64,000 nt of DNA from Escherichia phage MiataMamis, in the sequence record PP925834.1, one strand, 5' to 3'. Shown piece by piece: positions 53,012-56,110 of this stretch. A model generated the notes under the pieces. The model was not told the origin of the DNA, made no database searches, and saw nothing but the letters and a program-made list of their open reading frames with translations. Both the position numbers and the translations under genes were made by a program. How positions within the stretch are numbered: the first letter of the stretch is position 1; each line of letters opens with the position of its first letter.

Positions 53012-54058
53012 TTAAGCATAAGATATAGTGATCCATTGACCATTTACAAGTTTTTGGATAGCACCTGTCCAGTAATCACCTTGATAAGGGTGTTTATAAG
53101 CGTAGTTACCCGAGCACATCACATGTCCAGGGTAAACTCTTGACTCTCTGTAGGTGGTTTTGAAACGGTTTGCTATCCTCACATCATCAACCCCTCTGCT
53201 GGGCATAGGAACAGTAAGGTTACCACTACCGTCTGCGCTGTTACCATTTACCCTGCGGACCACGTTTCTTCCACCAACTGTTGCATATTGGCCCCTGACG
53301 GTTTCATCGTTACAATCAACTCTTCCACCTATTTGAGCGCTTCCACAGGATTGTTGTCCATTAACAGTGGCTCTTGGTATAGTAGCTGCATTGGCATTTG
53401 TAGAGGAACTTTTTGCGTCGTTGCATTCAAGATTTCCTTGGATAGCCAGTCTTGCACGGTTGGCAGTTATAGCATTGAGCTTCATAGCTGAAAACACAGG
53501 CTGCCCACCAGAAGGTTGAAATCTCCAACGGAAACCGTCTATTTGGTGAGAGGGATCATCAAGGTCTGTGCCGTCAGCACCACCGATGTTGTCCATAATC
53601 CAGAAATCCATCATCGTCTTGTCTGAAGTTATGGTGGTGTATATCGCCGCACTGTCTGTTGACGCGGATGCAAACTCGATTCTTTGAAGACCTAAAGTTT
53701 GAGTCTGGATCATTGTGTCTCCAGCCTTGTCAACATAAAGGTCATCCATTTCTTCAGGCGAGTATACATTGAGAACTTGACGTGCAGCAGCTTTGTCTGG
53801 AACGTCTGCCAGATTATTAGTGACCCTTAAGAATCTATTATCCCATCCTGGGACAACATCTTCTGTTAAATGCTTTAACCACGCAGAAAGCATGTGAAGT
53901 TCAAAGTTAACAACTTCACATGCCACTCTTTGTGTCATATCCCAACCTTTCAGTCTCTCTTCTTTTTTTGGTTGGGACTTATTCAATTCTCCCGTATTTT
54001 CAAGCACAACATCCTGATTGGCCCAAATATCAAGAGGGATAACTGGTTTAGTCATCAC
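53012..54058 (-). CDS. tail fibre / receptor-binding protein, paralog 1 (348 aa)
   Basis: Homologous along its length to 55070..56110 (shared N-terminus PLDIWA/PLEIWA, KAGDTM motif, C-terminus LVNGQWIT(I/V)(S/N)YA). Confidence 0.75.
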   Translation of the reverse strand: MMTKPVIPLDIWANQDVVLENTGELNKSQPKKEERLKGWDMTQRVACEVVNFELHMLSAWLKHLTEDVVPGWDNRFLRVTNNLADVPDKAAARQVLNVYSPEEMDDLYVDKAGDTMIQTQTLGLQRIEFASASTDSAAIYTTITSDKTMMDFWIMDNIGGADGTDLDDPSHQIDGFRWRFQPSGGQPVFSAMKLNAITANRARLAIQGNLECNDAKSSSTNANAATIPRATVNGQQSCGSAQIGGRVDCNDETVRGQYATVGGRNVVRRVNGNSADGSGNLTVPMPSRGVDDVRIANRFKTTYRESRVYPGHVMCSGNYAYKHPYQGDYWTGAIQKLVNGQWITISYA

Positions 54059-54144
54059 GTTCTCCTGAGAAAATTCCTTAGGACTATTTTAACACTTTAG
54101 TGAACAAAATGCAAGAACGGAGTCCTTTCCGTCCTGACCTTTGT

Positions 54145-54459
54145 TTACCTTTTGCTATGCTCTACAAGCATGTGCAAAATCTTTTGTACATCAGCTCTGA
54201 TGCCGGAGACATCTGTCCTAACATCCTGCTTAAGGTCGTTAATATCGGCCTCTAGCTTGCTTAACCGGGTCTCGATAATAGAATCAAGTTTATCTTTTGT
54301 AACCATACTGTTTTTCACTAAGATGAGGTCTTTCTCCAGTTCATCCAACCTCTTGGAAATGCCTTTCCATTTGGTGTGCCACTGGTTGAAAGCCCATACA
54401 CAGATCGGGACAACGGTACCCATGCAGATACCGTACAATGCCGCCAAATCCAACTCCAC
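54145..54459 (-). CDS. membrane-anchored coiled-coil protein (104 aa); Rz-like spanin or holin candidate
   Basis: N-terminal TM segment ALYGICMGTVVPICVWAF followed by charged heptad-like region. Confidence 0.55.
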   Translation of the reverse strand: MELDLAALYGICMGTVVPICVWAFNQWHTKWKGISKRLDELEKDLILVKNSMVTKDKLDSIIETRLSKLEADINDLKQDVRTDVSGIRADVQKILHMLVEHSKR

Positions 54460-54470
54460 AACACCTCCTC

Positions 54471-55055
54471 TTAGAGGGTAGGTCGCTCCGGGAAGAAAAT
54501 GTCAGGGGCTTTAGATGTATCTATTTCAAGAAGTTTTACCCTGTACATTTTCAAATCTCTGATGTTACGTTTCTGGTCATCAGTAAGATCATATTCAAGG
54601 TCAATCATGTCTTGATAGGCACCAATTCTAGCAGTAGCCCAAGCAAGTTCTGTCTCTATGACACCCTCTGCCTGTTGAACAAAGAATTCATTGTCTGTGA
54701 CAAATTCATCACCAACTAAACGCAAAGCGTCGTGGTGAAGCATAATGTTTTCTGGTACCTCTTCTTTTTTGGCGATAACCACACGAAGACCTGGAGCAGG
54801 CCATAGGGCATCAGGTTCTTCTGTAGATGTCTTAAGAATTCCCTTCTCGTCAACAAGTAGGAAGATACAACCCGGATTTTCTTGTCGTAATGTTCGTGAC
54901 TGCACATACCAATCGCCATCATCATTACGTAAAAAATACCCAGTGTATGCGGTGTAATCCTCAACCTCTTGAGGGGTCAGCTCCTTGGTTCCCTTGTTAG
55001 GGTGGTATTCGCCAGATCCCGGTTGGTAAAGTTTAAACTCTTGAAGTATTTTCAT
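54471..55055 (-). CDS. tail fibre assembly chaperone (Tfa/gpG-like)
   Basis: C-terminal RNIRDLKMYRVKLLEIDTSKAPDIFFPERP matches the W..YR..L..VD.S.APDI.WP..P motif of tail fibre assembly proteins; directly downstream of a fibre gene. Confidence 0.75.
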   Translation of the reverse strand: MKILQEFKLYQPGSGEYHPNKGTKELTPQEVEDYTAYTGYFLRNDDGDWYVQSRTLRQENPGCIFLLVDEKGILKTSTEEPDALWPAPGLRVVIAKKEEVPENIMLHHDALRLVGDEFVTDNEFFVQQAEGVIETELAWATARIGAYQDMIDLEYDLTDDQKRNIRDLKMYRVKLLEIDTSKAPDIFFPERPTL

Positions 55056-55069
55056 GCTAGTCCTCCGAT

Positions 55070-56110
55070 CTATGCATAATTAACAGTGATCCATTGACCA
55101 TTTACAAGTTTTTGTAAAGGTCCTGCCCAGTAGGTTGAACCACGCATCTCTTTTTTGTCACCGAAATGCCAGCCTGTGACAACGTAGCCGTTGCGAATTG
55201 GAGATTCAGAAACGCCGTCAACAAGTCTTGCACCGATTCTGATGTCTTGCACACCTGTCTGCGGGATAGTGATTGTTACATCACCGTTACCGTTAGCCGT
55301 CACCCCATTCACAGAGCGCACCACATTTCTGTTACCGACAACACAGTGCTGGCTCCTTACAACCATGCTGTCACAACTTGCACCACCATTAACATATACT
55401 GACCCAGCCGTCAACTGACTAGCCACATTACAGTTGGTGAATGTTGCTGTATTGCTGATAGTAAGGTTATTGCACCTCATGTTATCGACAACTTCAACAT
55501 TGCCTACCACTTTCAACAGCGCACGGTTAGCCGTGATCGCGTTAAGGTACATCAAAGTGAACTCTGGATTAATATCCGGCTGAGTTGGCTGGAATCTCCA
55601 ACGGAACGCATCTACTGTAGATGTACCACCATCATCAAACGACCCGGTATTATCACTTAACCCAAAGTCGAGAGTTGTCTTATCTGGGCCAATAGTTGTC
55701 TCTATCCAAGCCTTATCTGTCTCGGCAGCTTTAAAGTTGATACGTTGCAAACCCAAGGGGCCTGTCATTGTATCACCTGTAACTTTTACATACCTGGCGT
55801 CTGCCTCTTCCTTAGTAATAATCCCAAGGTTTCTACGGGCAACAGGGATGTTCAAAAGATCACTCAAGTTATTATCACGTACCAGATAACGACCTTCTTG
55901 AGCGGGGATCTGCTCGTCAGCAATGTATTTTGCCCAAGTTCCGAGCATATTGAAAATATAGTTAAGTTCTTCACATGAGGGCTTTTGACCAAGATCCCAA
56001 CCTTTTCTCCACAAATCATCAATCGGGCGTAGCCTGTTCTGTCTGTGGGTGTTAGGCAGAACCTGATCCTCCTCTGCCCAAATCTCTAATGGAAAACTAG
56101 GTTTTGACAT
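55070..56110 (-). CDS. tail fibre / receptor-binding protein, paralog 2 (346 aa)
   Basis: Homologous to 53012..54058; KVTGDTMTGPLGL fibre-type motif. Confidence 0.75.
   Translation of the reverse strand: MSKPSFPLEIWAEEDQVLPNTHRQNRLRPIDDLWRKGWDLGQKPSCEELNYIFNMLGTWAKYIADEQIPAQEGRYLVRDNNLSDLLNIPVARRNLGIITKEEADARYVKVTGDTMTGPLGLQRINFKAAETDKAWIETTIGPDKTTLDFGLSDNTGSFDDGGTSTVDAFRWRFQPTQPDINPEFTLMYLNAITANRALLKVVGNVEVVDNMRCNNLTISNTATFTNCNVASQLTAGSVYVNGGASCDSMVVRSQHCVVGNRNVVRSVNGVTANGNGDVTITIPQTGVQDIRIGARLVDGVSESPIRNGYVVTGWHFGDKKEMRGSTYWAGPLQKLVNGQWITVNYA

Follow-up and report, generated by a model that had tools for sequence, protein, structure and literature searches.

Two short tail fibre genes and one assembly chaperone in an rV5-like Vequintavirus, with their most consistent difference in the predicted attachment domain

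Why would a phage keep two short tail fibre genes and a single chaperone gene? The question is raised by positions 53012-56110 of a 64,000-nucleotide stretch of Escherichia phage MiataMamis (PP925834.1; hereafter the window), which a first-pass annotation had read as duplicated receptor-binding fibre genes suggestive of dual receptor specificity or an expanded host range. The window is 97-99% identical in nucleotide sequence to rV5 and more than 100 relatives, and the region is the short tail fibre (STF) module of an rV5-like Vequintavirus, made up of two Mu GpS-like fibres and one Tfa/GpU-type chaperone. The genes concerned and their rV5 equivalents are as follows.

58195..58881, minus strand: baseplate "wedge 1" homolog, 228 aa, rV5 gp35
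55070..56110, minus strand: STF1, short tail fibre paralog 1, 346 aa, intact ORF, rV5 gp33
54471..55055, minus strand: Tfa-type (Mu GpU, lambda gpK) chaperone for tail fibre assembly, 194 aa, rV5 gp32
54145..54459, minus strand: 104-aa protein, one transmembrane helix at the N-terminus and a coiled coil after it, rV5 gp31
53012..54055, minus strand: STF2, short tail fibre paralog 2, 347 aa, intact ORF, rV5 gp30
52734..53000, minus strand: 88-aa protein, phrog_1322 "membrane protein", last gene of the small-protein cassette, rV5 gp29

The module shows no difference of substance from that of rV5, whose genes are also found in the BASEL Vequintavirus phages, where the annotations read "short tail fiber protein" twice and "tail fiber chaperone" once. 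The genes come in the same order and with the same lengths; identity to the rV5 counterpart is 99.7% for STF1 (one residue changed) and 97.4% for STF2 (nine changed), and beyond residue 282 the tip has none of these changes. For rV5, earlier papers already describe the paralogy, the lone chaperone and late promoter P030 (PMC3606486, PMC8594841), and Kropinski 2013, reporting the paralogy, proposed "two chemotypes of LPS" (PMC3606486). The duplication with its single chaperone is thus known and ordinary for the genus, and since it is textbook-level there, the earlier finding as written adds nothing new. What is added here is the orthology of STF1, the genomic slot and signals of STF2, the distinct N-terminal domain of STF2, the homogenisation of the 3' ends, and the purifying selection on both genes.

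Both fibre genes are intact minus-strand ORFs whose products are 43% identical over their full length (BLASTP, E 3e-95), and both are matched end to end by phrog_4465 (E 1.8e-171 for STF1, 8e-164 for STF2), which bears out their description as paralogs. The second copy had been given 348 residues from a GTG at 54058, but its start is most likely the ATG at 54055 (347 aa), because rV5 has GCG in place of the GTG, a Shine-Dalgarno sequence (AGGAG) lies 6 nt 5' of the ATG, and existing annotations give 347 aa. The first-pass annotation also described conserved termini and a divergent centre. This holds for the C-terminal part, where the last ~20 residues are 70% identical, but not for the rest: the N-terminal domain (residues 1-110) is only 38% identical, and the best-conserved stretches are central (residues 111-150, 190-210 and 260-280, at 55-65% identity). 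The most divergent stretches are residues 51-90, 210-250 and 300-330.

As had been stated, only the upstream fibre is followed by a Tfa-like gene. The chaperone gene lies directly 3' of STF1 and its product matches Pfam PF02413 (Caudo_TAP; E 1.3e-11, residues 122-192) and phrog_136 (E 3.6e-36), while STF2 is followed by the 88-aa gene. It is the only chaperone of this kind at the locus, and no further copy of any STF or Tfa domain was found in the 64-kb window. A Tfa homolog follows the STF gene in every relative examined; a sequence search of the PDB with the chaperone gave no meaningful match.

Gene order separates the two fibres. In the window the order is wedge, gp34, STF1, Tfa, 104-aa gene, STF2, 88-aa gene and a 581-aa fibre, and the arrangement STF1-Tfa-104aa-STF2-small ORF-fibre is shared by the window and lineages L010-L013, the small ORF being 117 aa long in L013 and 88 aa in the others (window, L010-L012). 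The sister-genus phages Av-05, GAP31, BIS47, TH18 and R7 all have STF-Tfa-104aa-157aa-88aa-fibre. In other words, STF1 holds the position of the single-copy STF of the sister genera, after the wedge and gp34 genes and before Tfa, and STF2 occupies the slot held there by a gene for a 157-aa polytopic membrane protein. The 157-aa gene was present in 107 Vequintavirinae records, phiTE among them, with no rV5-like record among the matches listed or in the organism tallies; its relocation elsewhere in the window was ruled out, as tblastn of the window gave no match. STF1 is the ortholog of the single STF found in all sister genera, and STF2 is an additional gene that only Vequintavirus-like lineages have.

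The second copy had further been said to be flanked by two small membrane proteins. Both small ORFs exist and the 104-aa protein has a clear transmembrane segment (residues 3-24, Kyte-Doolittle 1.9), but the membrane assignment of the 88-aa protein is doubtful: it is only weakly hydrophobic (maximum Kyte-Doolittle 1.05), and the table of the rV5 authors gives no transmembrane domain for gp29, although RefSeq and PHROG label it a membrane protein. The 104-aa gene is the first of a conserved small-protein cassette 3' of Tfa; its transmembrane and coiled-coil architecture also occurs after Tfa in Avunavirus, Seunavirus and Mydovirus, and its counterpart is labelled "lipoprotein" in phi92-like and phAPEC8-like phages. 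Every Vequintavirinae locus examined had the 88-aa gene at this position. For a role of these small proteins as a holin/spanin lysis cassette the sole support was a weak XhlA match (E 0.025), and the rV5 authors place the lysin and a putative holin elsewhere in the genome.

Two candidate transcription signals precede STF2:

54114..54135, minus strand: terminator-like hairpin with a T-rich run after it, in the gap separating the 104-aa gene from STF2
54085..54094, minus strand: late-promoter-like motif TGTTAAAATA, directly upstream of STF2, corresponding to the rV5 putative late promoter P030

The hairpin has a minimum free energy of -12.3 kcal/mol (z -2.2), and in L010 and L013 a hairpin followed by an invariant TTGCATTTT occurs at the equivalent place, with three of six pairs changed on both sides; the evidence for a terminator is modest. 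P030 lies at rV5 22274..22310 (Kropinski 2013 Table S4, PMC3606486), and the motif is kept in L010 and L013 as TGCTAAAATA. Judged from these motifs, STF2 appears to have transcription signals of its own.

Both genes are intact in ~116 Vequintavirus records and in two divergent lineages, and STF1 is 99-100% identical across 100 phage records. dN is 0.09 for STF1 and 0.16 for STF2 with synonymous sites saturated, so that neither copy is a pseudogene. The tips (42% identical between the paralogs) are each ~93-94.5% conserved between lineages. Both fibres are under strong purifying selection, with the tips as their most conserved parts. A recent tandem duplication was ruled out, since synonymous sites are saturated and DNA similarity between the copies is restricted to the last 62 nt.

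The N-termini of both fibres are homologous to the baseplate segment of the phiTE short tail fibre (phmmer E 1.4e-19 for STF1, 1.9e-8 for STF2), and Foldseek placed a low-confidence model of STF2 with phiTE 9cuy_a at a probability of 0.91. In phiTE, STF residues 3-92 bind baseplate wedge 1 (PMC11972413). The product of 58195-58881 matches phiTE wedge 1 (9mjn, E 3e-66) and Phi92_gp146 (21vq, E 5e-23), and by analogy gp35 is the predicted docking partner of the STF N-terminal domain. AF2 monomer modelling of the two fibres from an alignment of 32 sequences gave poor models (pLDDT 62 and 61, pTM 0.34 and 0.28), good only for a coarse fold comparison: the only significant fold match for both was the Mu GpS-chaperone complex 5yvq (Foldseek E 4.5e-7 for STF1 and 1.4e-6 for STF2, the latter resting on its low-confidence model). 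At the sequence level the STF1 tip matches 5yvq_A (Mu S residues 440-501) with E 1.7e-6, and STF2 has no sequence match to the Mu GpS tip. These results support receptor-binding-type fibres accompanied by a single Tfa-type chaperone, with a Mu GpS-like tip more tentative for STF2 than for STF1. Cryo-EM shows STF density on the baseplates of Bas49 and Bas54 (PMC12143355); at 7-9 A there is one such density, and this resolution cannot tell paralogs apart (PMC12143355). The main text of the rV5 paper gives gp30, gp32 and gp33 as detected in the virion. Its mass spectrometry Table S5 lists 19 proteins, none of them 347, 346 or 194 residues long by whole-word search, and gp30, gp32 and gp33 are absent from three of the table's four parts. 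No relevant mass spectrometry data on these paralogs were found in the other rV5-like papers examined.

The predicted attachment domain is where the paralogs differ most consistently, rather than the receptor-binding tip. In the N-domain, 43 columns are at least 90% conserved across 26 further homologs; STF2 departs from them at 15 and STF1 at 5, and the STF2 deviations are fixed among its orthologs. In neighbour-joining domain trees, the N-terminal and middle domains of STF2 from three lineages form their own clade, and the L013 STF2 tip clusters with the L013 STF1 tip, to which it is 89% identical; these trees rest on 50-200 columns and are weak, and rapid STF2 evolution could mimic a deep branch. 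The STF1 tip is 56-60% identical to those of phi92-like phages, phAPEC8-like phages, Av-05 and R7, compared with 34-43% for the STF2 tip, and STF1-type tips are common to phi92-like and phAPEC8-like phages, Av-05 and ~52-kb Salmonella and E. coli phages. Because its tip is closer to those of relatives and fewer of its conserved N-domain columns have changed, STF1 is the ancestral-like copy. STF2 carries a derived N-terminal domain and, in the window's lineage, a derived tip as well. The STF2 tip had no match outside the genus, and its acquisition from another phage group was rejected, there being no donor in 50,697 phage records.

At their 3' ends the two genes share a tract:

55085..55114, minus strand: STF1 3'-end tract of 30 nt, coding for QKLVNGQWIT, 100% identical to the STF2 tract, synonymous sites included
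53027..53056, minus strand: STF2 3'-end counterpart, also 30 nt, identical to the STF1 tract

Where the paralogs have the same residue, the same codon is used at 11 of 13 positions in the last 20 residues, versus 42 of 129 elsewhere (Fisher p 3.7e-4), and in L010 both paralogs share synonymous states peculiar to that lineage. The paired tracts look like a signature of gene conversion or concerted evolution, although selection on the nucleotide sequence could in principle produce the same identity. Tfa proteins are modular, with an N-domain that binds the fibre tip and a conserved C-domain that drives trimerisation (PMC9608196), and the homogenised final 20 codons agree with a single chaperone for both fibres.

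The explanation favoured here, with a probability of about 0.6 for the whole, is a two-fibre, one-chaperone module in which STF2 takes a second class of mounting or a second site and the divergence of its tip is secondary. Both fibres would be expressed late, and each would form homotrimers, the state of the tail fibres of Mu, P2 and phiTE, with folding beginning at the C-terminus with the help of the single Tfa. Gene conversion would keep the C-terminal strand identical, so that both fibres stay compatible with one chaperone. The N-terminal ~90 residues would plug each trimer into the baseplate at wedge 1. During infection, lateral fibres would first engage surface glycans such as NGR, after which the STF tips would bind the conserved LPS core (GlcI region) irreversibly. 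What the duplication most likely supplied, to judge from the sequences, is another class of mounting, or another site, on the baseplate, because the attachment domain is what always separates STF2 from STF1; the tip divergence in the window's lineage would be a secondary elaboration, possibly towards a second LPS-core epitope. The stronger proposition, that the extra fibre serves not mainly an added receptor but a second mounting position, with recurrent conversion of the last ~20 codons preserving compatibility with Tfa, is offered tentatively, the odds being against it; it draws on the N-terminal adaptor, no other part of STF2 being distinct from STF1 in all lineages.

That the fibres instead sit at equivalent positions and bind two receptors or LPS chemotypes with differing tips, giving a broader host range or adsorption robust to core variation, is close to what Kropinski 2013 proposed (PMC3606486) and to what the first-pass annotation suggested. 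In its favour, tips only 42% identical are each 93-94% conserved between lineages with synonymous sites saturated, and the STF1 tip type is found in other phage groups while that of STF2 has no match outside the genus. However, for 18 Vequintavirus phages genome-wide screens, run in K-12 and in O157:H7 (R3 core), found just one terminal receptor, the outer-core GlcI of LPS, and eight single-fibre Justusliebigvirus phages use GlcI as terminal receptor too (bioRxiv 10.64898/2026.07.23.740414; PMC7229145). Furthermore, the STF alleles hardly vary across ~116 phages that differ in host range (host ranges: PMC8594841), and the L013 paralogs share essentially one tip, which indicates that the duplication can be maintained without tip divergence. 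Since the screens give a single receptor, the same as that of single-fibre relatives, dual specificity is unproven and host-range expansion unsupported. The reading is only weakened, as a redundant second receptor would escape single-gene screens, and it is regarded as rather unlikely.

The single STF density and the near-identical, codon-homogenised last ~20 residues, at which Tfa-assisted trimerisation starts, would also suit one kind of STF in which the paralogs co-assemble as heterotrimers (for example 2:1), nucleated by Tfa at the shared C-terminal strand, as would the presence of one chaperone gene only. Against such co-assembly, shaft and tip differ by gaps of 2, 4 and 2 aa and are only 25-30% identical at residues 210-250 and 300-330, which is hard to square with an in-register triple beta-helix; identity between the N-domains is just 38%, STF2 belongs to a different transcription unit, and the known fibres of Mu, P2 and phiTE are homotrimers (PMC11972413). 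Heterotrimers are considered very improbable. The one density, together with the signs of gene conversion, could likewise be claimed for an STF2 that is no functional virion fibre, kept as a spare recombination template for STF1 or for a non-structural role, as could the lack of a gp30 or gp33 entry in the parts of the rV5 table examined; that lack is uninformative as to gp30, because STF1 is missing there too. Purifying selection is strong over the whole STF2 ORF, with the tip 94.5% conserved and dS saturated, the ORF is intact in three lineages with a late-promoter motif and a Shine-Dalgarno sequence, and its adaptor is still phiTE-STF-like (E 1.9e-8). A non-virion STF2 is judged very improbable.

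If the second-mounting explanation is true, this locus would exemplify concerted evolution of paralogous receptor-binding proteins under the constraint of a chaperone. Phages of the rV5-like group are common E. coli phages with a broad host range that serve in typing, biocontrol and therapy cocktails; the terminal step of their adsorption depends on the STFs. Tip swaps for host-range engineering would need to respect both the C-terminal strand common to the two fibres and the N-terminal adaptor particular to each.

Among known systems, T4 gp12 resembles these fibres in role only, as a short baseplate fibre that binds the LPS core for irreversible adsorption; it is encoded by a single gene and has the chaperone gp57A. 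The rV5 authors reported HHpred similarity to it (PMC3606486), but neither STF has a sequence or fold match to gp12: no gp12 chain was found at E ≤ 1 with phmmer, nor among the best 50 Foldseek matches. In T-even phages specificity varies by allele, whereas both STF paralogs are nearly invariant (PMC8594841). The phi92 gp147-type and phAPEC8-type loci (Justusliebigvirus, Phapecoctavirus) are alike in the order wedge, baseplate, STF, Tfa and transmembrane-coiled-coil protein, and in a tip 59-60% identical to that of STF1. They differ in having a single STF, whose N-terminal and middle domains are only 18-29% identical, and in lacking the 157-aa and 88-aa genes, a colanidase tailspike coming next.

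The phiTE STF (9cuy/9mjn), from the same subfamily, Vequintavirinae, is homologous over its N-terminal ~85-108 residues, and wedge 1 is conserved. Its phage is flagellotropic and LPS-independent (PMC11972413), and it is a single 554-aa protein with a coiled-coil shaft and Ig-like distal domains, unlike the paralogs described here. The Mu GpS/GpU system (TfaMu, 5yvq) is alike at the other end of the fibre: the STF1 tip is homologous to Mu S, a Caudo_TAP gene lies directly downstream, and an outer-core glucose of LPS is the receptor. In Mu, an invertible segment gives two alternative tips, S and S', each with its own Tfa (U and U'), and one is expressed at a time. MiataMamis has instead two full fibre genes in fixed orientation that share one Tfa, with an N-terminal adaptor of the phiTE rather than the Mu type.

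The 5.5 kb around the fibre pair had 97-99% nucleotide identity to Escherichia phage rV5 and to more than 100 Vequintavirus relatives. Gene order was assigned by comparison with the annotated rV5 genome and that of the BASEL phage JohannBauhin, and the minus strand carried every gene of the fibre region.

Genes of the fibre region in transcription order (window coordinates, strand, product)
58893-60383, minus, wedge protein (rV5 gp36)
58195-58881, minus, wedge 1 homolog (gp35)
56123-58195, minus, 690-aa protein (gp34)
55070-56110, minus, short tail fibre STF1 (gp33)
54471-55055, minus, 194-aa tail fibre assembly chaperone Tfa (gp32)
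54145-54459, minus, 104-aa protein (gp31)
53012-54055, minus, short tail fibre STF2 (gp30)
52734-53000, minus, 88-aa protein (gp29)
50979-52724, minus, 581-aa fibre (gp28)
after gp28, minus, 1878-aa fibre (gp27)

GC skew was +0.11 to +0.15 at about 38000-44000 and negative in the remaining window, indicating a plus-strand gene block within an otherwise minus-strand region. Roughly 16-21 GenBank entries, MG0656xx records among them, carried the label 'Campylobacter phage' and the host Campylobacter jejuni and were 98% identical to the E. coli rV5-like locus; the host label of these unannotated records looks doubtful. The gp34 protein contained Calx-beta and N4 gp65-like 'non-contractile tail sheath' N and TIM-barrel domains (tail-sheath-like matches PF23844 and PF23845, E 4e-80), and a 2026 preprint describes its family as binding the NGR glycan, which Vequintavirus and Justusliebigvirus use as their primary recognition substrate. 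Among relatives with a single STF, a gp34-type gene was also found in Av-05 and TH18, and not at the corresponding position in GAP31, BIS47, and R7. The ortholog of the 581-aa fibre in the divergent two-STF lineage L010 (7330-9075) carried the Pfam domains Phage_phiTE_241_N and _C, which link the fibre to a protein family of Pectobacterium phage phiTE; that family is possibly the 'third fibre' that was discussed for phiTE but left unmodelled.

The module encodes a single Tfa and two short tail fibres, of which STF1 is Mu-GpS-like and STF2 putatively so. The first-pass annotation had called the fibres paralogs, and they were: STF1 and STF2 were 43% identical over their full length (E 3e-95) and both matched phrog_4465 end to end; Kropinski et al. 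2013 had noted 42.3% identity between gp30 and gp33. No third copy of any STF domain was present within the window. The 194-aa protein was likewise borne out as a Tfa-type chaperone (Pfam Caudo_TAP, E 1.3e-11; phrog_136, E 3.6e-36). STF2 most likely starts at the ATG at 54055, giving 347 aa, because rV5 does not conserve the upstream GTG and a Shine-Dalgarno sequence stands at the right distance from the ATG. The proposal that the ends are conserved and the centre divergent was contradicted by the alignment, in which the N-terminal domain was only 38% identical; identity peaked in central stretches (55-65%) and in the final ~20 residues (70%) and was lowest at aa 51-90, 210-250, and 300-330. 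As to the two small membrane proteins said to flank STF2, the 104-aa product had a clear transmembrane helix followed by a coiled coil, but the 88-aa product was only weakly hydrophobic.

The N-terminal ~85-108 residues of both fibres were homologous to the phiTE short tail fibre (E 1.4e-19 for STF1, 1.9e-8 for STF2), in which, by cryo-EM, residues 3-92 make up the joint between the trimer and the 'wedge 1' protein of the baseplate (PMC11972413). A wedge 1 homolog was encoded two genes upstream of STF1 (match to 9mjn, E 3e-66). The C-terminal tip of STF1 resembled that of the Mu fibre GpS (5yvq, the Mu fibre complexed with its chaperone; E 1.7e-6), and 5yvq was also the sole significant PDB fold match of the AlphaFold2 monomer models of STF1 (E 4.5e-7) and STF2 (E 1.4e-6), which were of poor quality (pLDDT 62 and 61). 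Tfa proteins are modular, with a variable N-domain that binds the distal fibre and conserved C-terminal helices that drive trimerisation, and TfaMu remains on the mature fibre (PMC9608196). A solved structure, PDB 21vq, includes the phi92 baseplate wedge proteins Phi92_gp145 and Phi92_gp146; the phi92-like STF sequence matched none of its chains and seems not to be modelled there.

By position, STF1 was the ortholog of the single-copy STF gene. Of the 43 N-domain columns with at least 90% conservation across 26 other homologs, STF1 kept 38, and STF2 departed at 15, with changes that were fixed among STF2 orthologs; P19/E20, W34/R35, and Y62/H63 are examples of these paralog-specific positions. 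Tip identity to the fibres of phi92-like and phAPEC8-like phages, Av-05, and R7 was 56-60% for STF1 and 34-43% for STF2, and the STF2 tip had no match outside Vequintavirus. All five single-STF subfamily members examined (Av-05, GAP31, BIS47, TH18, and R7) had the order STF, Tfa, 104-aa, 157-aa, 88-aa, fibre. The gene for the 157-aa product, a polytopic membrane protein, occurred in 107 phage records across the subfamily, phiTE included, with no rV5-like record among the matches listed or in the organism tallies. A search of the window found no copy, and STF2 took exactly this slot in the window and in the divergent two-STF lineages L010-L012 and L013. The cassette of small genes after Tfa (104-aa, 157-aa, and ~88-aa) was conserved throughout the Vequintavirinae (compared in L003-L009), and the 104-aa architecture also followed Tfa in phi92-like and phAPEC8-like phages, annotated as 'lipoprotein'. 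Lysis, superinfection exclusion, and fibre assembly are among the possible roles for the cassette.

The sole sizeable intergenic gap of the fibre locus lay directly before STF2 and contained a terminator-like hairpin, a T-rich run, and a late-promoter motif, TG(T/C)TAAAATA, all at positions kept in the three lineages (window, L010-L012, and L013). Evidence for the hairpin is modest. When both strands of the window were scanned for the rV5 late-promoter motif TGGTAAAATA with one mismatch allowed, there were 16 occurrences (for example 60416-60425 and 54085-54094) compared with 6.7 expected, a number reached in 0 of 100 shuffles; 13 of the 16 fell on the minus strand, which is coding across most of the window.

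At the DNA level the two STF genes resembled each other only in the last 62 nt (84% identity). Within this stretch, the 30 nt encoding QKLVNGQWIT were identical between both genes, synonymous sites included, in the window, rV5, and JohannBauhin; at three synonymous sites, both paralogs of L010 and of L012 had CTG, GTC, and CAG in common instead. The same codon was used at 11 of 13 identical-amino-acid positions in the last 20 residues, compared with 42 of 129 elsewhere (Fisher p 3.7e-4). We read this pattern as gene conversion keeping both fibres compatible with one chaperone, though selection on the nucleotide sequence could in principle produce it as well.

Between the window and L010, synonymous sites were saturated and dN was 0.09 for STF1 and 0.16 for STF2, a selection pattern that makes it unlikely that STF2 is a non-functional copy. 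The tip was the most conserved domain of both proteins in this comparison (92.6% and 94.5% amino-acid identity), contrary to what a fast-evolving host-range determinant would show and compatible with invariant ligands, for example the LPS core. In domain-wise trees, the N-terminal and middle domains of STF2 from three lineages formed their own clade, while the L013 STF2 tip clustered with the L013 STF1 tip (89% identity), indicating that the duplication has persisted in a lineage whose two fibres have essentially the same tip. What consistently separates STF1 from STF2 is the predicted baseplate-attachment domain.

The first-pass annotation had taken the fibre pair to suggest dual receptor specificity or an expanded host range. 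This view is weakened by the near-identical L013 tips, by screens that identified one terminal receptor in K-12 and O157:H7 backgrounds alike (PMC7229145; bioRxiv 10.64898/2026.07.23.740414), by the use of the same receptor by single-STF relatives, and by the lack of considerable allelic variation in the STF paralogs (Maffei et al., PMC8594841). STF1/STF2 heterotrimers are unlikely because of the indels and low identity in the shaft and tip. With moderate confidence, we propose that both fibres are late proteins built into the virion, each homotrimerising with assistance from the single Tfa, and that STF2, through its derived adaptor, would be mounted on the baseplate as a distinct class or at a distinct site. 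In the present lineage, the derived STF2 tip would possibly bind a second conserved LPS-core epitope. Cryo-EM of phages Bas54 and Bas49 at 7-9 A (datasets of EMD-51869 and EMD-51868) placed a Mu-like STF on the baseplate, in maps that cannot distinguish the paralogs (PMC12143355). The rV5 main text names gp30, gp32, and gp33 among the proteins detected by virion proteomics (PMC3606486). The paper's own MS table, Table S5, lists 19 proteins: a whole-word search of it turned up none with a length of 347, 346, or 194 residues, and the three proteins were not found among the entries in parts 1, 3, and 4, which comprised proteins 61, 60, 53, 52, 133, 79, 152, 82, 34, 237, 41, 62, 235, 106, 37, 1, 27, and 228.

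The two-fibre feature is real and was correctly placed, but it is nothing new, having already been described for Vequintavirus; the literature contains both the observation and the dual-specificity reading. To this the slot replacement, adaptor divergence, and 3' homogenisation add modest evolutionary details, which are testable refinements.
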